Virus record (IMG/VR): IMGVR_UViG_3300027974_001530
DNA from: a virus
Lineage: Duplodnaviria > Caudoviricetes
DNA: 64,000 nucleotides
Reading direction: 5' to 3' (one strand)
Positions 1,429-10,156 of the stretch are shown here, piece after piece (positions within the stretch are counted from its first letter, which is position 1; every line of letters begins with the position of its first letter). The translations under genes and the position numbers were made by a program. Below the pieces are notes generated by a model. It worked only from the letters and a program-made list of their open reading frames with translations. It made no database searches and was not told where the DNA came from.

Positions 1429-1501
1429 TGGTGGACACTGTGGGAATCGAACCCATACGATCTGATTGCAAATCAGTCGACCTGCCGTCGGCATCAGGCC
1501 C
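1429..1501 (-). tRNA. tRNA-Ala(UGC), divergent
   Basis: Loop UU-UGC-AA, G3:U70 Ala identity pair, A73, encoded CCA; imperfect acceptor stem. Confidence 0.8.
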
Positions 1502-1506
1502 ATTTG

Positions 1507-1578
1507 TGCGGGTAGAATGAATCGAACACTCGTCTCCACATTGGAAGTGTGGAGTAATAACCATTATACGATACCCGC
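1507..1578 (-). tRNA. tRNA-Gly(UCC)
   Basis: Cloverleaf, stem CCACA/UGUGG, loop CU-UCC-AA. Confidence 0.92.
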
Positions 1579-1584
1579 TTATTG

Positions 1585-1665
1585 TACTGACGGTTGGATT
1601 CGAACCAACGTTTTAAACTTACCACTACAGTCATAGACGATATAAGCGTCCACTGGTACGTCAGC
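1585..1665 (-). ncRNA. tRNA-like RNA lacking a D-arm, with a CU-UAU-AU loop
   Basis: Acceptor GCUGACG/CGUCAGU, T-arm GUUGG/CCAAC, hairpin GGACG-CUUAUAU-CGUCU nested in UACCA/UGGUA. Confidence 0.6.
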
Positions 1666-1671
1666 ATTTAG

Positions 1672-1742
1672 TAGCGGATTCAGGGCTCGAACCTGGCCTC
1701 AGGGTTATGAGCCCCGTGTGCTACCAATTACACTAAACCGCA
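1672..1742 (-). tRNA. Initiator tRNA-fMet(CAU)
   Basis: CU-CAU-AA loop, three G-C pairs at the base of the anticodon stem, 1:72 mismatch. Confidence 0.85.
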
Positions 1743-1747
1743 ATATG

Positions 1748-1869
1748 TAGGTAAAACAGGATTCGAACCTGTACGATATAGTTCCCTTTTCAAGAGACAT
1801 CCCCAGCTATATCTCGGTGACTTCTTACGGGGAATAAACCTAAGCGTCTGCCAATTCCGCCACTTACCT
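1748..1869 (-). ncRNA. Enlarged (122 nt) Leu-like tRNA-like RNA
   Basis: Acceptor AGGUAAG/UUUACCU, Leu-type D-arm GCG-GAAUUGGCAGA-CGC, T-arm ACAGG/CCUGU, ~70-nt core with GAUAUAG/CUAUAUC stem and no clean anticodon arm. Confidence 0.6.
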
Positions 1870-1882
1870 ATTTAAAATTTTT

Positions 1883-1957
1883 TTGTCAGGGCCGGACTCG
1901 AACCGGATAAGCAACCTATAGGATTCGGGCACCGTCCCTCATTACGCCCACCTGACA
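1883..1957 (-). ncRNA. tRNA-like RNA (copy 2), paralog of 94-167
   Basis: Acceptor UGUCAGG/CCUGACA, T-loop UUCGAGU, shared core GUAAUGAGG..GGUGCC..GA.UCC..GGUUGCU. Confidence 0.65.
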
Positions 1958-1969
1958 AATTTATGTAGT

Positions 1970-2054
1970 TAGTAGTTGACTCACACTCTTGTTTCACCAT
2001 CTTGAGCCAACAGGTTAATGTACTTTACAAGTTTCCCGTTTCTTACAACCACTA
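1970..2054 (-). ncRNA. Candidate structured RNA (85 nt)
   Basis: 9-bp closing stem UAGUGGUUG/CAACUACUA and inner CUUGU/ACAAG. Confidence 0.35.
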
Positions 2055-2086
2055 TATTTTTATTTCAATGAACTTCTTCTGTCTTC

Positions 2087-2125
2087 ACGGGAGTAGGACA
2101 CCAACCTCTCACTTCCTACCCCCGT
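2087..2125 (-). other. 12-bp GC-rich hairpin at the predicted transcript 5' end
   Basis: ACGGGGGUAGGA/UCCUACUCCCGU just downstream of promoter 2136-2170. Confidence 0.5.
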
Positions 2126-2135
2126 TGTTTGTCTT

Positions 2136-2170
2136 ACAAATATACAAGGTTTTTTCTAATCTACCAAACT
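2136..2170 (-). promoter_or_regulatory. Bacteroidota sigma-A type promoter
   Basis: TTTGGTAG...TATATTTG. Confidence 0.7.
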
Positions 2171-2321
2171 TTTTTTGTGTTTTTCTTTCCTTGTGTAATT
2201 ATTTTTTAAATCCATAGATCTAGTAACAAATCTACCATCAAAAAAACCTTGTTCTTTTTGAGCAACCCTTTGACTACCCAAGATCATCTTATGTACGATA
2301 TTTTTTTCCTTTGTTTTCATT

Positions 2322-2612
2322 TTAACAGTATCTTAAAATTTGAGTAATTAATTTATTTATATCCTCTTTAGTCTGATAACCCAAAACATCATTAGTTATT
2401 TTTGTGTCATAAGAAATTTCCCAATCATCTTTTGTTCCTTTAATAACGGCGACCTCATAATCATCATCATCTGAAGTATATGATCCACCCCCACCAAAAG
2501 GAGATTTAAATCTTACAACCGAGATTCCGTATCCTCCAGGAAAAAACAGTAATCCGTGAACCCCATTACCAATACCATGTGGTTTAAACTCTATATCATC
2601 AAATGTTATCAT
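2322..2612 (-). CDS. Hypothetical protein
   Basis: ORF track 2322-2654; start moved to MITFDD, which follows TATCTTTG at 2617-2624. Confidence 0.75.
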   Translation of the reverse strand: MITFDDIEFKPHGIGNGVHGLLFFPGGYGISVVRFKSPFGGGGSYTSDDDDYEVAVIKGTKDDWEISYDTKITNDVLGYQTKEDINKLITQILRYC

Positions 2613-2658
2613 AAAACAAAGATACTGTTTATTTTTTAATTTCCAAAATTTCAAAGAA

Positions 2659-2691
2659 CAAAAAAACCCACCTCTTTTGGAGATGGGTTTT
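2659..2691 (-). terminator. Intrinsic terminator (attenuator 2)
   Basis: AAAACCCAUCUC-CAAAA-GAGGUGGGUUUUUUU, followed by a boxA-like GTTCTTTGA. Confidence 0.85.
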
Positions 2692-2715
2692 CAAAATTTA
2701 TTATGTGTTAAATTA

Positions 2716-2790
2716 TCATACCATCTCCTTATAGGAACGATCCTCAGCTATCGCCAATCCGCCTAATAATATGATATGTAAATTTTTCAT
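2716..2790 (-). CDS. Putative attenuator leader peptide 2 (MKNLHIILLGGLAIAEDRSYKEMV)
   Basis: 24-aa ORF between an ATATTTATAA motif and a terminator; its 3' end GGAGAUGG is complementary to the terminator arm CCAUCUCC. Confidence 0.75.
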   Translation of the reverse strand: MKNLHIILLGGLAIAEDRSYKEMV

Positions 2791-2850
2791 TTGCGTTTTT
2801 ATTTGTTTTGTTATAAATATATGATACTTTTTAAAAGTGTCAAGTTTTAT

Positions 2851-3183
2851 TTAATAATTTCCATCTTCATCGTCGTAATCTTCATCTTCTTCACCAACTA
2901 TTGCGTAGTTAAGTTCATCAAGAATTACATTAACAGGGATCTCATCACCTTCTTCATTATAAAACATACCTTCAGTTCCATACTCAGAATAGTCAACAAG
3001 AGTAGACCCCTCTTCAACAAGTTCATTATACATGTCAATGACATCTTGTGGGTTAGCACTTTTTCCAAGTTCCATTCTAACACCCTCATACATACTTGGG
3101 ATACGAATCATACCCTCTTTATTTTCATTAATTACACGTTTAACAATACGTGATAAGTCTCTTTCTGTTAATCTATTTCTCAT
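2851..3183 (-). CDS. Acidic protein with LTExDL leader
   Basis: MRNRLTERDLSRIVKRVINE leader; paralogous C-terminus with 3207-3539. Confidence 0.85.
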   Translation of the reverse strand: MRNRLTERDLSRIVKRVINENKEGMIRIPSMYEGVRMELGKSANPQDVIDMYNELVEEGSTLVDYSEYGTEGMFYNEEGDEIPVNVILDELNYAIVGEEDEDYDDEDGNY

Positions 3184-3206
3184 TTTTATGTTTTTTATAT
3201 TTTTTA

Positions 3207-3539
3207 TTATGCATATTCTTCATCATCAAAGTCTTCGTCCTCATCGGCATTATAAAAACCTTCTTGGTTTAATAATTTTTCAATTTCATCAGCTAAATCT
3301 TCATTATTATCAGCATATAACGCCTCAATAATATCAAATTCATCCATTGAATTGATTTCTTCAATGTCATATCCACATTCATTTTCAAGGAAATCTCTCG
3401 CCTCTTCAATTAACTCTTGAAGTTCTTCACTATAGTACGGATCATACATACTTCTGTCTTTATAGTTGTCATTTTCATTAATTACACGTTTAACAATTCT
3501 TGTTAAATCTGATTCTGTTAGTCTAATTACTTTTTTCAT
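3207..3539 (-). CDS. Acidic protein with LTExDL leader
   Basis: MKKVIRLTESDLTRIVKRVINE leader; TATTTAT upstream. Confidence 0.85.
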   Translation of the reverse strand: MKKVIRLTESDLTRIVKRVINENDNYKDRSMYDPYYSEELQELIEEARDFLENECGYDIEEINSMDEFDIIEALYADNNEDLADEIEKLLNQEGFYNADEDEDFDDEEYA

Positions 3540-3578
3540 TAAATGTTTTATTAATAAATATTCAATATACGATTTAAA

Positions 3579-3821
3579 TCACCACTTTCTTTTTTTATCA
3601 AGTTTTTTTGTTTTTTGATCCTCGATCATAGTTGCGTACTCATCTTTGGTTAATCTTTTAAAAGACTCATTATCCACATTACCAAATCTTTTTTTTGCAC
3701 TCGCCATTACTTGGATGAAGTTCTTACTCCACAAAATATTTGACCCTGCGACTTTACCGTTTTGAATTATATCAAAAACGTATAGGTATTCTCCTTCTTT
3801 ATTTTTCATCAACTTTTCCAT
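3579..3821 (-). CDS. Hypothetical protein
   Basis: ORF track 3579-3953 trimmed to MEKLMK because the upstream part overlaps tRNAs. Confidence 0.65.
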   Translation of the reverse strand: MEKLMKNKEGEYLYVFDIIQNGKVAGSNILWSKNFIQVMASAKKRFGNVDNESFKRLTKDEYATMIEDQKTKKLDKKRKW

Positions 3822-3840
3822 CTTCACTTTTTTTTGTTTG

Positions 3841-3914
3841 TACCTCCGGCAGGACTCGAACCTGCAAAATTCACTTTCTAAGAGTGACGTGTATACCAAT
3901 TCCACCACGAAGGC
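3841..3914 (-). tRNA. tRNA-Leu(UAG), short variable loop
   Basis: Leu-type D-arm, loop CU-UAG-AA, variable region only AUUUU. Confidence 0.88.
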
Positions 3915-3921
3915 ATTTTTG

Positions 3922-3994
3922 AGCTCAGGGAGGGATTCGAACCCCCGTACCAAGGTTTTGCAGACCTGGGCCTAAACCACTCGACCACCTGAGC
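3922..3994 (-). tRNA. tRNA-Cys(GCA)
   Basis: Loop CU-GCA-AA, U73. Confidence 0.92.
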
Positions 3995-3996
3995 AA

Positions 3997-4452
3997 TTAA
4001 CGGCAGTGGTGATCTGCCGCTCTTGTTGCAATTTGATTGTCAGGTTTAATATTTGCTTTATAACCTAACGACGTTGCCCACCCAACAACAGGAGAAACAA
4101 GTTTTGAACTGTAATGTTTATCTTCACAATTATAATCCAAATCTATTTCAACCTTAACTTTTACTTTTTGAGTTAACCATTCGGCAACCTCAATTGAATA
4201 ATCGGCTTCATTCCAAAGACGTGTCCACTTGTCTTTTATTTTTTTCACTTTTTGTTTGTGTAGGATGTAGTGAACACCACGATTACCATACCTGTAAGCA
4301 ATTACCGTAACATATACGGTACTTCTTCTATGGTTTTGTGAATCGGTTCCAATATGGATCTCAACCCATGGACATTCCTTTAAAACATCTAAGGTGTGTT
4401 TAACCACATCAGGTATCGCTTCACCATTAATTGTCCTAAATACTCTGTTCAT
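3997..4452 (-). CDS. RNase H-like protein (YkuK/DUF458-like)
   Basis: Motifs IHIGTDSQ, RLWNEADYS, EIDLDYN, RAADH. Confidence 0.7.
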   Translation of the reverse strand: MNRVFRTINGEAIPDVVKHTLDVLKECPWVEIHIGTDSQNHRRSTVYVTVIAYRYGNRGVHYILHKQKVKKIKDKWTRLWNEADYSIEVAEWLTQKVKVKVEIDLDYNCEDKHYSSKLVSPVVGWATSLGYKANIKPDNQIATRAADHHCR

Positions 4453-4468
4453 TATTTCTTTTTATTTG

Positions 4469-4541
4469 TGGACAGAGAGGGTGTCGAACCCCCGACTCCA
4501 GGATCTTCAATCCTGAGCTCTACCAACTGAGCTACCTGTCC
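4469..4541 (-). tRNA. tRNA-Phe(GAA)
   Basis: Cloverleaf, loop UU-GAA-GA. Confidence 0.93.
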
Positions 4542-4548
4542 TTCTTCA

Positions 4549-4601
4549 GGGAGGACTTGGTTGAGGTATCCTAATGGTTCTACCCTCAACTCTCGCCTCC
4601 C
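4549..4601 (-). other. GC-rich two-helix hairpin between CDS and tRNA-Phe
   Basis: GGGAGG/CCUCCC plus GUUGAG/CUCAAC. Confidence 0.45.
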
Positions 4602-4604
4602 GTC

Positions 4605-5099
4605 TTATTTAACTTCAAACGCATGAAGTAATACACGTTTTTTCTTGGTTGAATCCTCGTGGTTACCAATTACCACACCATCTTTGATTGTGAAAGCGTG
4701 ACGACTAACTAACATAAAGAATGTCCCAATAGGGTTTTGTTTTGTAAATGTACCCACAGTCATTTTACGTTTAACTCTCTCACCCTTTACTTTAACATCG
4801 TACTCCAAAGTGTGTCTACGGTAATTGTTTAATTTACCAACACACTTAACTTTTTTGTAGTTTACTTGACTTCTATTTTCTGCAAGTTTAGTCATTTTAT
4901 CTACAGTACCATAAGTACCGTTACGATCTCTACGACCAAAATTTTCTCTAACGTATTTGTGAGCGTAATCGTAAGACACATCAAAACAAGATGCAAATGC
5001 TCTTACAACACAATCGTTGGTTTCATTTTTTGCGATTGCAGATTCTTCATAACCTTTAATGGCTTTTCCTGTATTACAATATGGTAGTGCGTCTTTCAT
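4605..5099 (-). CDS. Hypothetical protein (NDCVVRA...H motif, possibly papain-like fold)
   Basis: 164-aa ORF; host-type promoter at 5101-5134. Confidence 0.75.
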   Translation of the reverse strand: MKDALPYCNTGKAIKGYEESAIAKNETNDCVVRAFASCFDVSYDYAHKYVRENFGRRDRNGTYGTVDKMTKLAENRSQVNYKKVKCVGKLNNYRRHTLEYDVKVKGERVKRKMTVGTFTKQNPIGTFFMLVSRHAFTIKDGVVIGNHEDSTKKKRVLLHAFEVK

Positions 5100-5145
5100 A
5101 CTGTAAAGATACGAAATTTTTTTTAACTGGCAAAATTAATTTTTG

Positions 5146-5216
5146 CACATGGTGTTAGAATCGAACTAACCCGTCGAGGTTTTGGAGACCTGACCGACAC
5201 CTTGTCTGTACCATGT
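5146..5216 (-). tRNA. tRNA-Trp(CCA)
   Basis: Loop CU-CCA-AA, G73, short D-loop. Confidence 0.88.
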
Positions 5217-5224
5217 GTGTTTTG

Positions 5225-5297
5225 TACCCCCACAGAGATTCAAACTCCGATCTTTCCCTTAGAAGGGGAACGTCCTGTTCAGTTGGACGATGGGGGC
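5225..5297 (-). tRNA. tRNA-Arg(UCU)
   Basis: Stem UUCCC/GGGAA, loop CU-UCU-AA. Confidence 0.92.
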
Positions 5298-5301
5298 AAA
5301 T

Positions 5302-5478
5302 AAAAGATGATAAATGACTTTATCAGGAATCTGGGGTTCGTATCACTACGACGCTTCACACACCATTAGAGAGTTGGGTTGTTACATCAATACAATTAAG
5401 ATTGAATACCTTTCCTTAGTGTGTACCCTTACGACACGTCTCTCCACGTCTGTCATTCTACGTTTCTTATCATCTTTT
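5302..5478 (-). ncRNA. Candidate structured ncRNA (~175 nt)
   Basis: Perfect 12-bp closing stem AAAAGAUGAUAA/UUAUCAUCUUUU, then AAUGAC/GUCAUU, hairpins ACGU/ACGU and UCGUA/UACGA. Confidence 0.55.
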
Positions 5479-5479
5479 G

Positions 5480-5552
5480 TACCTTCGGCGAGACTCAAAC
5501 TCACATCTTGTGGTCCGTAGCCACAGGTTCTATTCTATTTAACTACGAAGGT
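5480..5552 (-). tRNA. tRNA-Arg(ACG)
   Basis: Stem UGUGG/CCACA, loop CU-ACG-GA. Confidence 0.92.
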
Positions 5553-5568
5553 AATTAAAGAATTTTGG

Positions 5569-5643
5569 TCAACCACTCGCATCCCACCAATCTCTTGTAT
5601 CAAACTTTCTGTAGTCCAAACGATAACATCTCCTACTACTCAT
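5569..5643 (-). CDS. Possible micro-ORF MSSRRCYRLDYRKFDTRDWWDASG
   Basis: Manually read 24-aa ORF between tRNA-His and tRNA-Arg(ACG). Confidence 0.3.
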   Translation of the reverse strand: MSSRRCYRLDYRKFDTRDWWDASG

Positions 5644-5687
5644 TCTCAACTCACTTGCCTAAGCCTTGTCCGTTGTAAATTCTTTTG

Positions 5688-5761
5688 GGTGAATGGTGGG
5701 TTTCGATCCCACTACTTTCGGCTTCACAAACCGACGCTCTCCCGATTGAGCTACAAACACC
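5688..5761 (-). tRNA. tRNA-His(GUG)
   Basis: Loop UU-GUG-AA, G-1:C73 pair. Confidence 0.9.
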
Positions 5762-5767
5762 ATATAG

Positions 5768-5835
5768 TCCCGTATGTTGGACTTGAACCAACCTCAAGTC
5801 GGATATGAGCCAACTTTGATCCCTGATCATACGGG
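5768..5835 (-). tRNA. Compact (68 nt) tRNA(CAU), presumed elongator Met
   Basis: Acceptor CCCGUAU/AUACGGG, minimal D-arm GAU-CAGGG-AUC, 6-bp anticodon stem AGUUGG/CCGACU, loop CU-CAU-AU. Confidence 0.75.
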
Positions 5836-5849
5836 TTGTTGTTTTATAT

Positions 5850-5932
5850 CTATCCGGAAATTTTCCTAATAGATTATTCAATTGTAGATGTCTATCCGGA
5901 AAAAAAGTCATCCTATCCGGAAAATTTCCGGA
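5850..5932. repeat. CTATCCGGAAA x3 plus one inverted TTTCCGGA
   Basis: Copies at 5850, 5892 and 5913; inverted copy at 5925. Confidence 0.8.
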
Positions 5933-5941
5933 TTTTAATCG

Positions 5942-6027
5942 AGGAAGACATTGGAATCGAACCAAATACCCTTACGGGTACATCTCGCTTAGCAGGCGGA
6001 CCCTATCTCCATCAAGGTTTATCTTCC
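5942..6027 (-). tRNA. tRNA-Ser(GCU)
   Basis: Long variable arm GUACCC-GUAA-GGGUAU, loop CU-GCU-AA. Confidence 0.9.
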
Positions 6028-6085
6028 ATAGAGTGTGGTACTCCTGCAGTAGTTGGGGCACCCACACAAGTTATTCCCCTTTTTG

Positions 6086-6158
6086 TGCTCACGATAGGTT
6101 ACGATCCTATTCTCTCCACGATATCAGCGTGGTGCTTTCCCGATTAAGCTACGTGAGC
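6086..6158 (-). tRNA. tRNA-Ile(GAU)
   Basis: Stem CCACG/CGUGG, loop CU-GAU-AU. Confidence 0.92.
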
Positions 6159-6165
6159 ATTGTTG

Positions 6166-6238
6166 CGGACAAGGTAGGGTACGATCCTACAACCCTCGTA
6201 TTAACAGTACGATGCTCTCCCAATTGAGCTACTTGTCC
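6166..6238 (-). tRNA. tRNA-Asn(GUU)
   Basis: Stem UCGUA/UACGA, loop CU-GUU-AA, G73. Confidence 0.93.
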
Positions 6239-6244
6239 ATTTTT

Positions 6245-6330
6245 TGGTGGGAGAGGAGGGACTCGAACCCCCAAGGTCTCACGACGACAGATTTACAGTC
6301 TGCTGAGCCAACCAATTGCTCAACTCTCCC
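6245..6330 (-). tRNA. tRNA-Tyr(GUA)
   Basis: Loop CU-GUA-AA, long variable arm, encoded CCA. Confidence 0.93.
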
Positions 6331-6338
6331 AGTTCAGG

Positions 6339-6454
6339 AAAGGGGAAGATGGTTCCGTGGACATCCCCTTTTATGATTGGCGTTACTATGACAGTTAAAA
6401 CTCCGACATAACTACGAACTACTGACACGTTAACGTTATATCATTCCCCAATCA
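6339..6454 (-). ncRNA. Candidate structured ncRNA (~115 nt)
   Basis: Stems UGAUUGG/CCAAUCA, GAUAUAAC/GUUAUGUC and AAAGGGGA/UCCCCUUU. Confidence 0.45.
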
Positions 6455-6461
6455 ACCTTTG

Positions 6462-6535
6462 TACACCCTACAGGGATCGAACCTGTGACCTGTTGTATGT
6501 AAAACAACCGCTACTACCATCTGAGCTAAAGGTGC
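6462..6535 (-). tRNA. tRNA-Val(UAC)
   Basis: Stem GUUGU/ACAAC, loop UU-UAC-AU. Confidence 0.92.
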
Positions 6536-6537
6536 GT

Positions 6538-6753
6538 TTATGATGTTATCATTTTAATACTTTCAATTGTGGTAGAGTACATTCCTTGTTCAATATAAGG
6601 TTTACTATCTTTTAATAGTTTCAAAACAATTTCTGTTGCCTCGTTTTCGGATTTACCTTGTTTAACCAATCTTACGATTGCTCTCTCACATTCTTCCCCA
6701 ACCTTAACCATTCCGTTTGGCAGTCCTTTTTTAATTTTCTCTACTTTATTCAT
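6538..6753 (-). CDS. Hypothetical protein
   Basis: 71-aa ORF behind promoter TTTGGTAG...TAACTTTG (6755-6789). Confidence 0.7.
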   Translation of the reverse strand: MNKVEKIKKGLPNGMVKVGEECERAIVRLVKQGKSENEATEIVLKLLKDSKPYIEQGMYSTTIESIKMITS

Positions 6754-6796
6754 AGTACAAAGTTAATGGTTTTTTTTAATCTACCAAATTTTTTTG

Positions 6797-6872
6797 TGTC
6801 CCCGACAGGGTTCGAACCTGTGACCCCTCCATTAAAAGTGGAGTGCTCTGAAACCAACTGAGCTACGAAGAC
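6797..6872 (-). tRNA. tRNA-Lys(UUU)
   Basis: Stem CUCCA/UGGAG, loop CU-UUU-AA. Confidence 0.93.
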
Positions 6873-6877
6873 ATTAG

Positions 6878-6953
6878 TCGGGATACCAGGACTCAAACCT
6901 GGATGATGTCCACTTCCCAAAAGTGGCGACTTAGTCAATTAGTCCACATCCCG
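6878..6953 (-). tRNA. tRNA-Pro(UGG)
   Basis: C1:G72, loop UU-UGG-GA. Confidence 0.9.
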
Positions 6954-6959
6954 TTATAG

Positions 6960-7043
6960 AGGAAGAAGTAGGTGTCGATCCCAATACCTTTCGGTACCGC
7001 CCGTTTTCAAGACGGGGTCACAAGCCGTTGTGATTCATCTTCC
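6960..7043 (-). tRNA. tRNA-Ser(UGA)
   Basis: Stem CCCGU/ACGGG, loop CU-UGA-AA, long variable arm. Confidence 0.9.
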
Positions 7044-7049
7044 TTATTG

Positions 7050-7121
7050 TTGTTCCCCAAGGGTTCGAACCTCGATTCCATGGACCAAAACCATGTGTCC
7101 TGCCGATTAGACGAGGGAACA
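7050..7121 (-). tRNA. tRNA-Gln(UUG)
   Basis: U1:A72, stem CAUGG/CCAUG, loop UU-UUG-GU. Confidence 0.92.
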
Positions 7122-7158
7122 TTAATGAATCCAATATGTCAAAGAACTTTTTCTTTTG

Positions 7159-7231
7159 AGGTTCCTATCAGGGTCGAACTGATGACTCCGGGTTACAAAG
7201 CCGGGATATTACCAAACTATACTAAGGAACC
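7159..7231 (-). tRNA. tRNA-Thr(UGU)
   Basis: Acceptor GGUUCCU/AGGAACC, loop UU-UGU-AA. Confidence 0.9.
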
Positions 7232-7245
7232 AAATTTTTGGGTAT

Positions 7246-7275
7246 AAAAAAACCCTAACTGTTTTGAGTTAGGGT
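7246..7275 (-). terminator. Intrinsic terminator (attenuator 1)
   Basis: ACCCUAACU-CAAAAC-AGUUAGGGU-UUUUUU, ~15 nt before the first tRNA. Confidence 0.88.
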
Positions 7276-7307
7276 CTTATATTTCTTATATGTTTAGTTA
7301 ATCTTTA

Positions 7308-7418
7308 TCAACTCATAAATAAAAATGCCCTATTATGCGACTTAAGCGTACGATACACGTTAAACGACCACTGAATGCTCGGGTTACAAATGTTCATATG
7401 TCTATTAGTTGTTTTCAT
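7308..7418 (-). CDS. Putative attenuator leader peptide 1 (MKTTNRHMNICNPSIQWSFNVYRTLKSHNRAFLFMS)
   Basis: 36-aa ORF between ATATTTATAA and the terminator; has a codon for each of the 18 downstream tRNAs. Confidence 0.8.
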   Translation of the reverse strand: MKTTNRHMNICNPSIQWSFNVYRTLKSHNRAFLFMS

Positions 7419-7424
7419 CTTGTT

Positions 7425-7432
7425 ATAAATAT
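7425..7432 (-). promoter_or_regulatory. Phage (putative late) promoter motif ATATTTAT
   Basis: Same motif sits ~5-35 nt upstream of more than 25 genes, e.g. 2813, 3554, 14612, 20627(+), 23753(+), 24440(+), 30017(+). Confidence 0.6.
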
Positions 7433-7482
7433 ATTGTTTTTTCTAAAAATTTTAATTCTTGTACAAATATATGTGATTTTTT

Positions 7483-7599
7483 TTAATTGACAATCGTTTT
7501 TTCAATATTTTCCTGTTCTTCATCCAATCTACGTAAGAACACGTAGTAATCTTCCGATTCTATAAATTCGTTATGAATTAATTCTAAAATTTCTTCCAT
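7483..7599 (-). CDS. Possible small acidic protein (38 aa)
   Basis: Manually read ORF MEEILELIHNEF...KTIVN. Confidence 0.4.
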   Translation of the reverse strand: MEEILELIHNEFIESEDYYVFLRRLDEEQENIEKTIVN

Positions 7600-7600
7600 A

Positions 7601-7789
7601 TTATATTTTTTTTACTTCGTATATGTGACCTGAATCAGAATTAGTTTGGAAGATCTCTTTCATTTTTTCAGCCTCTTCGATGGTGTTAAATTCCCACACT
7701 TCAGTTTCGGTATTTAATAATATTACAGGAAGTCTTTTACCTGAAATTCCTTTATTATTTGTTTTTACGTGTTTAATTATAATGAACAT
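7601..7789 (-). CDS. Hypothetical protein
   Basis: 62-aa ORF. Confidence 0.7.
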   Translation of the reverse strand: MFIIIKHVKTNNKGISGKRLPVILLNTETEVWEFNTIEEAEKMKEIFQTNSDSGHIYEVKKI

Positions 7790-7833
7790 AAGTTTTTTAT
7801 TTAAAAATACTTAATACTTAAAACAATATCAAG

Positions 7834-9534
7834 TTAAAATCTTAATTTTGGTAGATCAAGTCTTCTATTTGGTTTTGGCGGATTAAACTCATCATTAATT
7901 TGTCTCTTTGTTTTTTGTTTTATTTGTTCAACATTTTTTCTTTGTTCTGTTACTATATTAACTTCAGTTACTTTTTCTTTGTTTTTAAGAATATTAAATA
8001 AAGGATTGTCCGAAACTACTTTTTGTTTTTTACGAATAAAAACTTCTTCTATTATTTTTGGTTCTTTGTTAAAAATAGAAACCAAACATTTTTCATTATT
8101 TGTTTCAACTATTTCAGGGTAAACAAACGTTTCTAAAATCCCATCATGGTCAATAATTTTAAAATCCCTTATGTTTAATTTTTTAGGATTGCCGTCACCT
8201 TTTTTAGATTTTGATATTTGTTGATATTGGAATCTTTTTGGTGATCTTAGTCCGGTGTCAGTACGACTTGTTAAACCATTATCATGAATTCTTCTTTTAA
8301 ATAAAGTTACAGGTGTATGTAGTATTTTACATTTTCTCTTATATAATCTACCCATAAAATCAGAATCAGCAGCACACATCCAAGGTTCAAAACCATTCAT
8401 ATTTAAGAATAATTCCTTAGTTATTGCAAACACACCCTCACCAAAAAGTGACTTATTTGACGGTGTAATACCAACACCAAAATCTTTATATTTTGGCTTT
8501 ATACAATCATATTTATCAATATTATTAATAATTGTTGACACTAATTCTTTTTCTGATATATCATCAGAATCAAAAAATAATAAATTTTTAGAATTACATA
8601 TACTTGTTAAAGTGTTCTTAATTGAGTAAGGACCTTCATTTTCATTGAAATAAAAAAATGTTACGTTTTTTGGGAACTTTTTTCCTTTAATAAAATCCAT
8701 AGTTTCTTTACACCCGTCAACCCCAATTAAAATCTCCACATTATAATTTTCTGTGGATTTGACCAAAGAATTTATACATTCGTCAAGGTAATTTGTATTC
8801 TTATATGTTGGTACAATTATAGATAAATCAAAATTATGTTTAGTCACTAATTTAGTTTTTAATCTTTCAGTATAATTCATTTTAGATTCATGATCCCCAT
8901 GAATTACCATAGATTTTTTGGTGTGGTATAGGAAAAACTTTTTTTTGTTTAATCTATCAGTTATTTGATGACCAACACCAGAACTTAGATTTGGGTTTTT
9001 AGACCACCTAGATAGTGGTATATCATATATTTTATAATCCAAGGACTCAAAAAACTTTTTTTCACAAATAAAACATAGGTCATTCCATTGCGTTTGATAA
9101 AAATCCCCATAATCCACCCCTTTAGGGTAACCCCAATTATCTCTAAGAACTCTATCGTCTGTTAATATGTTTAAACATATTTTTTTTCTTGAGTCAATTT
9201 TTATGTACATCTCTTTAGTTTCTTCAAAAAAATTATCAACTAATTTAATGTCGTCAGGTAAATAAATAAAATATTTAGAATGAATATTTTTTACAAATTC
9301 AAAAGTTTTATTAATAACATTATAATACTTTTTTTTACCCATGTTTGGGTAAATATCTATTTTTTTTACGTCATACCTACTAAGGTCATATTCAACGTCG
9401 CTACCATCATTAAAAACCGCAACCAAAACATTATAATCTTTTTTTTGGTTATTTATATCATCTAATAACCTTTTTAAAAAATCAGGTCTATTATATGTGG
9501 TAATTAAAATACAAAAATCATAAATTTTATCCAT
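7834..9534 (-). CDS. Double-domain GT2-family glycosyltransferase
   Basis: Two GT-A starts (LITTYNRPDFL; IIVPTYKN...FFDSDD), AADSDF motif. Confidence 0.85.
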   Translation of the reverse strand: MDKIYDFCILITTYNRPDFLKRLLDDINNQKKDYNVLVAVFNDGSDVEYDLSRYDVKKIDIYPNMGKKKYYNVINKTFEFVKNIHSKYFIYLPDDIKLVDNFFEETKEMYIKIDSRKKICLNILTDDRVLRDNWGYPKGVDYGDFYQTQWNDLCFICEKKFFESLDYKIYDIPLSRWSKNPNLSSGVGHQITDRLNKKKFFLYHTKKSMVIHGDHESKMNYTERLKTKLVTKHNFDLSIIVPTYKNTNYLDECINSLVKSTENYNVEILIGVDGCKETMDFIKGKKFPKNVTFFYFNENEGPYSIKNTLTSICNSKNLLFFDSDDISEKELVSTIINNIDKYDCIKPKYKDFGVGITPSNKSLFGEGVFAITKELFLNMNGFEPWMCAADSDFMGRLYKRKCKILHTPVTLFKRRIHDNGLTSRTDTGLRSPKRFQYQQISKSKKGDGNPKKLNIRDFKIIDHDGILETFVYPEIVETNNEKCLVSIFNKEPKIIEEVFIRKKQKVVSDNPLFNILKNKEKVTEVNIVTEQRKNVEQIKQKTKRQINDEFNPPKPNRRLDLPKLRF

Positions 9535-9535
9535 A

Positions 9536-10156
9536 TTAAATATTTAAAATACTTTTACATTTATTCAAGAAAAAACTGTCTTTTTTTCTGAATCTAGATT
9601 CAAAAGAATGATAAGTGTTATTCTCATAGTTTGTCCCATACCCAAACCAAATATTGTCTTTTAATTTAACAGTTGGAACTTCTACGCTTGTTGGGTATAA
9701 TAATTTAATCTTTACGTCTTTTTCTATTGCGTTATGGGTTATTTCTGCACCACAATCTGATCTATTATTTGTTGTAAAACTTGGTTTACCTAATCTTTCA
9801 TATGTCTTCATAGTAAAAACCATAAAAGAAGGTGCAACATAAATAAAAGTATTATGAGGTTTCATTAATTTAGGGGCTAACTGAGAGTTACCAAATACAC
9901 CATCATTTTTTATCACCCATTCAACCGCATGTCCTATTATTTTTTTGTTTAATGGAATACAATCAATATCAAATAGAACAATAACTTCATTTGGGTCTTC
10001 AATTGTTGTTAAATAATCGTCAATTGAATTACCATGACTAACCCAATTTGATACGTTTATCTGATTTATATCATATTTAAAATGATTAAATACTTTTTTT
10101 TGATAATCAACAACTATTGGGTTTATTTTTTCATTATAAAATGTTATTATCCTCAT
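9536..10156 (-). CDS. Putative GT-A fold glycosyltransferase
   Basis: VLFDIDCIP DxD motif; sits in the GT cluster. Confidence 0.6.
   Translation of the reverse strand: MRIITFYNEKINPIVVDYQKKVFNHFKYDINQINVSNWVSHGNSIDDYLTTIEDPNEVIVLFDIDCIPLNKKIIGHAVEWVIKNDGVFGNSQLAPKLMKPHNTFIYVAPSFMVFTMKTYERLGKPSFTTNNRSDCGAEITHNAIEKDVKIKLLYPTSVEVPTVKLKDNIWFGYGTNYENNTYHSFESRFRKKDSFFLNKCKSILNI

Follow-up and report, generated by a model that had tools for sequence, protein, structure and literature searches.

Within a stretch of 64,000 nucleotides (nt) of DNA from a virus of the Caudoviricetes (IMG/VR record IMGVR_UViG_3300027974_001530; the whole stretch is referred to below as the window), an array of transfer RNA (tRNA) genes on the minus strand is preceded by a short unit, here called unit 1. 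Judged from its sequence, unit 1 is on balance probably a ribosome-dependent leader-peptide transcription attenuator that gates read-through into the phage tRNA array. We are more hesitant about a wider proposal, which could nearly as well be right as wrong, namely that unit 1 and a paralogue (unit 2) are two attenuators that split a near-complete phage tRNA set into two feedback regulons, their leaders being near-minimal codon-box 'pangrams' that include isoacceptor splits. A leader-peptide attenuator had been proposed at this site in an earlier annotation made from the bare sequence (the original prediction). Its architecture and codon cover have held up and are joined by a candidate switch in unit 2, whereas the antiterminator helix that it suggested, UGAGUUG:UAACUCA, and the expected co-variation of leader codons with tRNA content have not.

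On the minus strand, the elements follow one another in the order promoter, leader open reading frame 1 (ORF 1), stop-codon hairpin, intrinsic terminator and a block of 18 tRNAs (Table 1). The succession of promoter, leader ORF, terminator and tRNAs is real and is conserved in relatives; the 36-codon ORF is recovered with the list of codons first given for it. The motif of the promoter, P1, follows the Bacteroidota-type -33/-7 pattern and is kept across 33 unique homologues, in which variation is confined to the two free positions of TAnnTTTG. From this sequence we infer that 7464-7493 functions as a promoter. ORF 1 starts 46 nt past the -7 box of P1, with no Shine-Dalgarno sequence upstream, and an attenuator is expected to have just such a short ORF in its leader, directly 3′ of the promoter. 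The ATATTTATAA motif that had been noticed ahead of the ORF is present at 7432-7423. A sigma-70-like match (7455-7428) lies inside the conserved leader 5′ of ORF 1, and since this leader is homologous to the unit 2 promoter, TTGACA-N16-TATATT, 7419-7463 may be a second, weaker promoter.

An A-rich spacer separates the stop-codon hairpin from the terminator, whose stem (7274-7267 / 7260-7253) is followed by seven T at 7252-7246. Including its A/U extension, the terminator has a folding energy of -14.9 kcal/mol (z score -5.4); across homologues, 99.6% of the aligned cells are paired, 3 of 7 pairs show compensatory changes and five versions of the stem occur. Stem, T-run and folding all confirm the intrinsic terminator of the original prediction. 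A scan with the pattern TTG-N18-20-TAnnTTTR from the T-run to tRNA-Lys found no promoter, in agreement with the earlier statement that none stands between the terminator and the Thr, Gln, Ser, Pro and Lys tRNAs; the next one is at 6787-6758. A terminator in front of the regulated genes with no promoter between them, as at 7274-7246, is a further mark of attenuators.

This arrangement recurs well beyond the window. A pattern scan of uncultured viral contigs yielded about 50 true loci, 33 of them unique, which share the promoter, leader, ORF, stop hairpin, terminator and adjoining tRNA; homologous loci, which the original prediction had proposed to look for in related phages, do exist. In all relatives, a tRNA begins within about 30 nt of the T-run. 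The 32-nt terminator has an exact match in 3 other viral contigs, in two of which it stands before a differently ordered array. The order that is widely kept runs from unit 1 through block 1 (Thr ... Leu-UAG) and unit 2 to Leu-UAA, (Phe), Met, Ile2, Gly, (Ala), Glu and Asp.

To describe the codon content of ORF 1, codons were grouped into tRNA decoding classes: 17 non-Met classes for block 1, and Leu-UUR, Ile-AUA, Gly, Ala, Glu and Asp for block 2. All 17 block-1 classes (17/17) occur within 35 codons, and the claim of a codon for each of the 18 tRNAs holds in that a cognate or wobble codon is present for every one. Block-2 codons are limited to two, GCA (codon 31) and TTA (codon 33). It is true, as had been pointed out, that codons 2-30 contain no Gly, Ala, Asp, Glu, Leu-TTR or Ile-ATA codon, but the cut at codon 30 was chosen post hoc, just short of these two; though post hoc, it fits the proposed antiterminator geometry around codons 29-31 (see below).

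The probability of such a composition, which had been left to be calculated, was obtained for full cover by exact inclusion-exclusion. Finding 17 of 17 classes in 35 codons has a probability (P) of 7e-5 under the codon usage of 45 long window ORFs, 2e-3 under uniform codons and 1e-3 under the mononucleotide composition of the strand, while shuffles of ORF 1's own bases with the frame kept open give 3.3e-3; the match is significant over this whole range. Jointly with no more than two block-2 codons, the corresponding values are 3e-7, 6e-5, 3e-5 and 1.1e-4. Among 115 small ATG-initiated ORFs in the window, only ORF 1 reaches 17 classes (the next best has 15), and 0 of 11,818 segments of 35 codons taken from long ORFs do so.

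The cover is also found in relatives. All 29 of the first-found variants hold 16-17 classes and 0-2 block-2 codons, with CGN the only class ever missing, and a divergent clade with about 45% peptide identity (L088, L090 and L107) holds 15-16 classes and 0-1 block-2 codons. The positions of the CGN, Cys/Ser-AGY, Ile, Val and Leu-CTN codons differ between clades: CGN is found in three separate locations, and codons 11 and 21 exchange Cys and Ser-AGY. When codons were shuffled inside each alignment column, a mean of 1.13 +/- 0.11 classes was missing against 0.47 observed, in a test that ignores phylogeny. Compared at the sequence level, the clades do show codon cover kept by each in its own way. 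The block-2 codons that are tolerated lie nearly all within two codons before AGG or after AGG (the exceptions are GGC in L086 and ATA in L088), a location that fits the antiterminator geometry of unit 1. The leader of an attenuator is enriched in codons that report on the regulated function, and both ORF 1 and the leader ORF of unit 2 are of this kind.

These results bear on a simpler explanation: unit 1 could be a small gene that stands alone, equipped with a promoter and terminator and encoding a basic 36-residue peptide with a function of its own; the codon cover would be a by-product, and the tRNAs would be transcribed by leaky read-through and from internal promoters. Such a gene would account for a peptide whose residues are fixed in position (HM, QWSF, Y.T, R.FSFMS), for a leader that is unchanged where arrays shrink, and for the internal promoters that exist. 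It does not account for a joint P of block-1 cover and block-2 avoidance of about 1e-4 or less under every null, for codon classes that shift position between clades, for a unit that is always joined to a tRNA, or for a paralogue ahead of the other block in which the codon set is complementary and an alternative helix covaries. In addition, the peptide has no match in Pfam, and a phmmer search against 1.8 billion representatives returned a single match. We therefore regard the stand-alone gene as fairly unlikely.

ORF 1 appears to be translated, because its frame is kept in every variant. Its ATG and stop codon are invariant in more than 30 variants, and its indels are all multiples of 3 (length 34-36 codons), against indels of 1-7 nt in the flanks; the reading frame is shown by these alignments to be under selection. 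This is difficult to reconcile with a non-coding small RNA that has an incidental open frame, an explanation otherwise in keeping with the block-wise nucleotide conservation, the lack of a third-position excess of change, and the unit's own promoter and terminator. RNAalifold and an all-pairs covariation scan found no helix within ORF 1 besides the stop-codon hairpin, and Rfam gave no non-tRNA match at an expectation value (E) of 1 or less in 7240-7500. The reading of ORF 1 as a structured RNA was rejected on these last two grounds, and we hold the small RNA to be most improbable.

The conserved peptide could also be an arrest peptide of the TnaC or SecM kind, i.e. the nascent chain would stall the ribosome in response to a small molecule or state, and the stall would decide termination. 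Conservation is strong for the C-terminal R(A/V)F(S/L)(F/L)MS-stop and for QWSF inside the peptide, and nucleotides are as well conserved as residues. However, the divergent clade replaces both motifs (..NWVKSY.. and ..CLSFN..) and keeps the codon cover, and unit 2 encodes an unrelated peptide within the same architecture. An arrest-peptide sensor is thus very unlikely.

Unit 2 carries the clearest indication of a switch. The 3′ halves of units 1 and 2 align, from the stop codon through TTTAAC and the A-rich spacer to AAAACCC, and ORF 2, the leader ORF of unit 2, carries a codon set complementary to that of ORF 1: all 37 of 37 variants cover the six block-2 classes, using 10-13 of 22-24 codons to do so. 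The strand GGAGAUGG and its variants pair with the 5′ arm of the unit 2 terminator in 94% of cells, with compensatory changes in 4 of 8 pairs. The covariation score of this antiterminator was matched in 0 of 500 shuffles and is as good as that of the unit 2 terminator itself. The duplex with a sequence's own arm has an energy of -12.5 kcal/mol, compared with -10.7 kcal/mol for shuffled arms. Both length classes of the leader are predicted to form a 1:2 helix, in which codons 4-7 pair with the stop region, and the antiterminator and terminator are clearly mutually exclusive. By sequence criteria, unit 2 is a classical four-segment attenuator. In several relatives it directly abuts tRNA-Leu(UAA), whereas in the window a promoter and two protein ORFs lie between.

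In unit 1, the antiterminator first suggested does not stand. The pairing of UGAGUUG (7315-7309) with UAACUCA (7271-7265) exists in the window, but it is not conserved and not specific to the family: the terminator loop varies freely in relatives, and pairing with a sequence's own arm is no better than with others (z score +0.3). This helix was therefore rejected. A different segment, codons -12 to -5 around the invariant AGG-G, is the part of the ORF that pairs best with its own terminator arm; in the window, UAGGG (7332-7328) pairs with CCCUA (7274-7270) of the terminator 5′ arm. The AGGG-segment duplex has an energy of -9.2 kcal/mol with a sequence's own arm and -7.8 kcal/mol with shuffled arms (z score -5.0; control segments have absolute z scores of at most 2.2), and the AGGG region is the only ORF segment that pairs specifically with the sequence's own arm. 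In this region, 77.5% of cells pair when all clades are counted, and one pair splits into CG in 14 and UA in 14. In the clades with CCCGAGAC or CCCAAGGC stems, NGUC..GGGU pairs with ACCC..GACN at -12 to -14 kcal/mol, with 82.8% of cells paired and two compensatory pairs. The hairpin at the stop codon (7313-7296), in which one UA to AU pair is compensatory, forms the tip of a composite antiterminator hairpin (7334-7269) made of UAGGG:CCCUA, AU-rich flanks and the stop hairpin (-11.2 kcal/mol, z score -2.8). For the window's own copy of unit 1, a switch of this kind is plausible.

Table 1. Positions of units 1 and 2 and of associated features in the window
Feature	Position	Strand	Basis or remark
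Promoter P1	7464..7493	-	TTG (7493-7491), 19 nt, TATATTTG (7471-7464); read directly and by pattern scan
Conserved AU-rich leader, 45 nt, 5′ of ORF 1	7419..7463	-	Alignments; ends with TATATTTATAAC (7433-7422)
Leader ORF 1, 36 codons and TGA	7308..7418	-	Frame unbroken in all unique variants
Candidate antiterminator strand, codons 29-31, AAUAGGGCA	7326..7334	-	Duplex and covariation
Hairpin spanning ORF 1 stop codon (AGUUGAU / AUUAACU, loop AAAG)	7296..7313	-	97.5% paired
Intrinsic terminator, stem of 8 base pairs (bp), 6-nt loop, T7	7246..7274	-	Covariation and folding
tRNA-Thr(UGU), first gene of the array	7158..7231	-	ARAGORN and Rfam; begins 14 nt past the T-run
boxA-like GTTCTTTGACA, between tRNA-Thr and tRNA-Gln	7137..7147	-	29/30 unique relatives
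tRNA block 1, 18 tRNAs	3840..7231	-	ARAGORN, Rfam, relaxed ARAGORN
Paralogous unit 2	2660..2843	-	Before second tRNA block; recurs in the same phages as unit 1
Unit 2 promoter	2843-2814	-	
Leader ORF 2, 24 codons	2790-2716	-	
Unit 2 antiterminator strand GGAGAUGG	2728-2721	-	Last four codons of ORF 2
Unit 2 terminator and T-run	2687-2660	-	Stem starts at 2687, T-run ends at 2660
boxA-like GTTCTTTGAAA, directly after unit 2 terminator	2649-2659	-	Motif resemblance

If unit 1 is an attenuator, it might work as follows. RNA polymerase would initiate at 7464-7493, a strong host-type promoter, and a ribosome would translate the leader. When decoding is fast, the ribosome would cover codons ~28 to the stop during synthesis of the spacer and of the terminator's 5′ arm, and would there block the composite hairpin that runs from AGGG through the stop hairpin to ACCC (7334-7269). 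In the absence of the composite hairpin, the terminator would fold and transcription would stop at 7246. When a tRNA is scarce, cleaved or uncharged, the ribosome would be delayed at an earlier codon and the antiterminator could form before the terminator 3′ arm; by sequestering the CCC of the terminator arm, it would let the polymerase run into tRNA-Thr. Host Nus factors, recruited perhaps by the boxA-like site, might then serve the remaining array. In this way, tRNA supply would feed back negatively on the transcription of tRNA genes, with the control divided between two regulons.

The boxA-like sites enter into another explanation, a gate that is indifferent to codons. The terminator could be a dosage valve or a timing device that is overcome by Nus/boxA-type or phage-encoded antitermination, or translation of the ORF could modulate RNA folding or stability with no sensing of particular tRNAs. 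A conserved boxA-like site does lie a short way downstream in each unit (for unit 1, 90-104 nt past the T-run in 29 of 30 unique relatives), the terminator is thermodynamically dominant, and fine co-variation with tRNA content is absent. On the other hand, this explanation leaves unaccounted for the complementary codon sets of the two leaders and the antiterminator strand within the last four codons of unit 2. Furthermore, because the boxA-like site lies past the terminator, it cannot help polymerase to pass it and so cannot decide read-through. We consider the codon-independent gate distinctly unlikely. The unit 1 site, GTTCTTTGACA, presumably resembles the boxA of rrn operons: a motif GTTCTTTGA(C/A)A, near the boxA consensus, stands early in both tRNA units as in rrn-type Nus antitermination, but here it is downstream of a terminator. 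By analogy, a functional boxA-like site would render the read-through transcripts resistant to further termination. Motifs of the form GTT(C)(T/A)TTGA(A/C)A are found early in stable-RNA units of the minus strand at 7137-7147, 2649-2659, 2063-2073 and 673-683.

Several observations weigh against attenuation in unit 1, and we set them out together. As regards the switch, the base of the window's antiterminator has only 5 bp, with a duplex energy of -7.3 kcal/mol; relatives with a CCCGAACT stem are weaker still (predicted duplex -5 kcal/mol); the composite hairpin is less stable than the terminator (-11.2 vs -14.9 kcal/mol); and the support comes from few independent changes, in permutation tests that ignore phylogeny. 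As regards the leader, ORF 1 has no third-position excess of change (entropy 0.33/0.47/0.43 over the three positions), its conserved codons being conserved at all three bases, and most of its rare residues keep the fixed positions given above; this points to a constraint beyond codon sampling, on either the peptide or the nucleotide sequence. Moreover, one codon per class means low sensitivity in comparison with the tandem codons of hisL or trpL, and the response should be shallow unless a tRNA is severely depleted.

As regards the tRNAs, reduced or rearranged arrays keep a full leader (L028, L018, L022/L023, L075, L086 and L055). In L022 (1660-3433), L023 and L086, Trp-Cys-Leu-His-Ile-Met-(Gly)-Glu-Asp follow unit 1 in a fused arrangement that lacks an intervening unit 2, and the leader is unchanged. 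The leader therefore does not track recent tRNA loss, and the co-variation of leader codons with tRNA content that the original prediction had put forward as a test is not seen: phages that have lost many tRNAs keep the full leader, and fine co-variation was not found in relatives. A table of CGN codon against tRNA-Arg(ACG), tallied by hand, reads 10/4/3/5 and looks too even for significance. Both Arg codon classes and both Arg tRNAs are absent in L088, for which L107 is a counter-example. The comparison with tRNA content is weak in both directions, because the tRNA calls in these arrays are imperfect. Because of promoters inside the array, at 6787 and 5133, 13 of the 18 tRNAs can be transcribed without passing the terminator, which leaves Thr, Gln, Ser, Pro and Lys as the only ones wholly dependent on it. 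Finally, the contigs of three lake metatranscriptomes, compared with 1500-9600, left 7246-7500 uncovered and gave only tRNA-like fragments elsewhere, and are uninformative.

Among known systems, those that come nearest are the multivalent leaders of the ilv and thr amino-acid operons of enterobacteria: the ilvGMEDA leader senses Ile, Leu and Val, and the thr leader senses Thr and Ile. Like these, the units described here have a short translated leader with codons for more than one amino acid and a terminator before the regulated genes, and they share the ribosome-decided alternative helices, which are indicated here by covariation in unit 2 and partially in unit 1. They differ in that tRNA genes rather than biosynthetic enzymes are regulated, and in that 17-18 classes are each sampled once or a few times, rather than two or three amino acids in runs. 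In addition, isoacceptor boxes (Ser UCN/AGY, Arg CGN/AGR, Leu CUN/UUR and Ile AUY/AUA) are split between the two leaders as are the tRNAs, and the system resides in a phage that has Bacteroidota-type signals and lacks a Shine-Dalgarno sequence.

Unit 2 resembles trpL and hisL more closely in its helices 1:2, 2:3 and 3:4, in the placing of sensor codons between segments 1 and 2, and in a stop codon that adjoins segment 2; the helix energies lie within the range familiar from trp. The window's unit 1 departs from this plan: it is without a strong 2:3 helix and has instead a long AU-rich composite hairpin with the stop hairpin at its tip. T-box riboswitches also sense tRNA status through antitermination of an intrinsic terminator, but they bind one uncharged tRNA directly, are untranslated and control synthetase and amino-acid genes, whereas here there is no Rfam T-box match and the conserved feature is an ORF. 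What sets the present case apart is the tRNA-gene target, the 17-18 classes per leader, the partitioning of isoacceptor boxes over two leaders, and the phage setting. Full-text literature searches found no description of attenuation of tRNA genes, and we know of no earlier case in which translation speed feeds back on tRNA-gene transcription.

Current discussion of phage tRNAs treats them as a remedy for mismatched codon usage and as a countermeasure when host tRNAs are degraded or cleaved. To our knowledge, how phages control their own tRNA genes is largely unknown. If the attenuator proposed here is real, a delay at any sampled codon would raise the transcription of tRNA genes able to relieve that delay, a direct homeostat of tRNA supply that could double as an alarm against host tRNA depletion or cleavage. 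It would extend the logic of trp, his and ilv from amino-acid supply to the decoding machinery, and would point to a coupling of transcription and translation in phages whose expression signals are of the Bacteroidota type. The unit is a compact, testable part of about 250 nt, and its two natural versions with complementary codon sets can serve as mutual internal controls.

The tRNA block behind unit 1 reads Thr, Gln, Ser, Pro, Lys, Val, Tyr, Asn, Ile, Ser, (CAU), His, Arg, Arg, Trp, Phe, Cys and Leu(UAG). Default ARAGORN and Rfam give 14 tRNAs in 3840-7231, and three more appear when ARAGORN is relaxed: Trp (5145-5216), Ser(GCU) (5941-6027) and Ser(UGA) (6959-7043). Another tRNA, overlooked by both default ARAGORN and Rfam, lies at 5767-5835 (minus strand); its anticodon is CAU, its D-arm is atypical, and its equivalent in relatives is Met(CAU). 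The number of tRNAs first given, 18 after the terminator, was thus right, though four of them score low; these four have counterparts of the same kinds at matching places in the array order of relatives. A canonical tRNA-Ala was not detectable in the window, where block 2 runs past the window's start; in relatives, Ala(UGC) is present in block 2. A tRNA-like element of 122 nt at 1748-1869 (minus strand; Rfam tRNA, 32.7 bits) has a long insert in its anticodon / variable region, and the spacer between Ser(GCU) and the CAU tRNA (5836-5940, minus strand) holds four copies of a TTCCGGATAG motif.

Block 1 is interspersed with three protein ORFs and the promoters 6787-6758 and 5133-5104, which are of the P1 family and stand in front of protein ORFs inserted among the tRNAs. 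Members of this family, TTG-N18-20-TAnnTTT(G/A), occur on the minus strand at 6758-6787, 5104-5133, 2617-2646, 2137-2167 and 1212-1242, most of them with an A-tract after the TTG box. Since several of them stop 4 nt short of an ATG, the inserted protein ORFs may have messenger RNAs that are leaderless or nearly so. Of the ORFs at 3997-4452 and 4605-5099 (minus strand), one matches RNaseH_like (PF04308, E 1e-25) and the other phrog_3754, a family of unknown function.

With regard to the host, blastn against 50,697 phage records matched only tRNA-sized pieces, with no close cultured phage in that collection, and eight large window proteins gave no PHROG. Some of the tRNA matches are to a Tenacibaculum phage. 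From these matches, together with the promoter pattern and the lack of a Shine-Dalgarno sequence, we infer a Bacteroidota host. The phage is a giant one of lake water; DNA of the window was matched in lake and freshwater metagenome runs. Upstream of unit 1, two small ORFs and a gene for a GT2 glycosyltransferase (7834-9534) are present in the window, and in L013, L017, L018, L020, L027 and many other relatives, a tRNA-Arg(UCU) lies directly 5′ of unit 1, outside the gated block.

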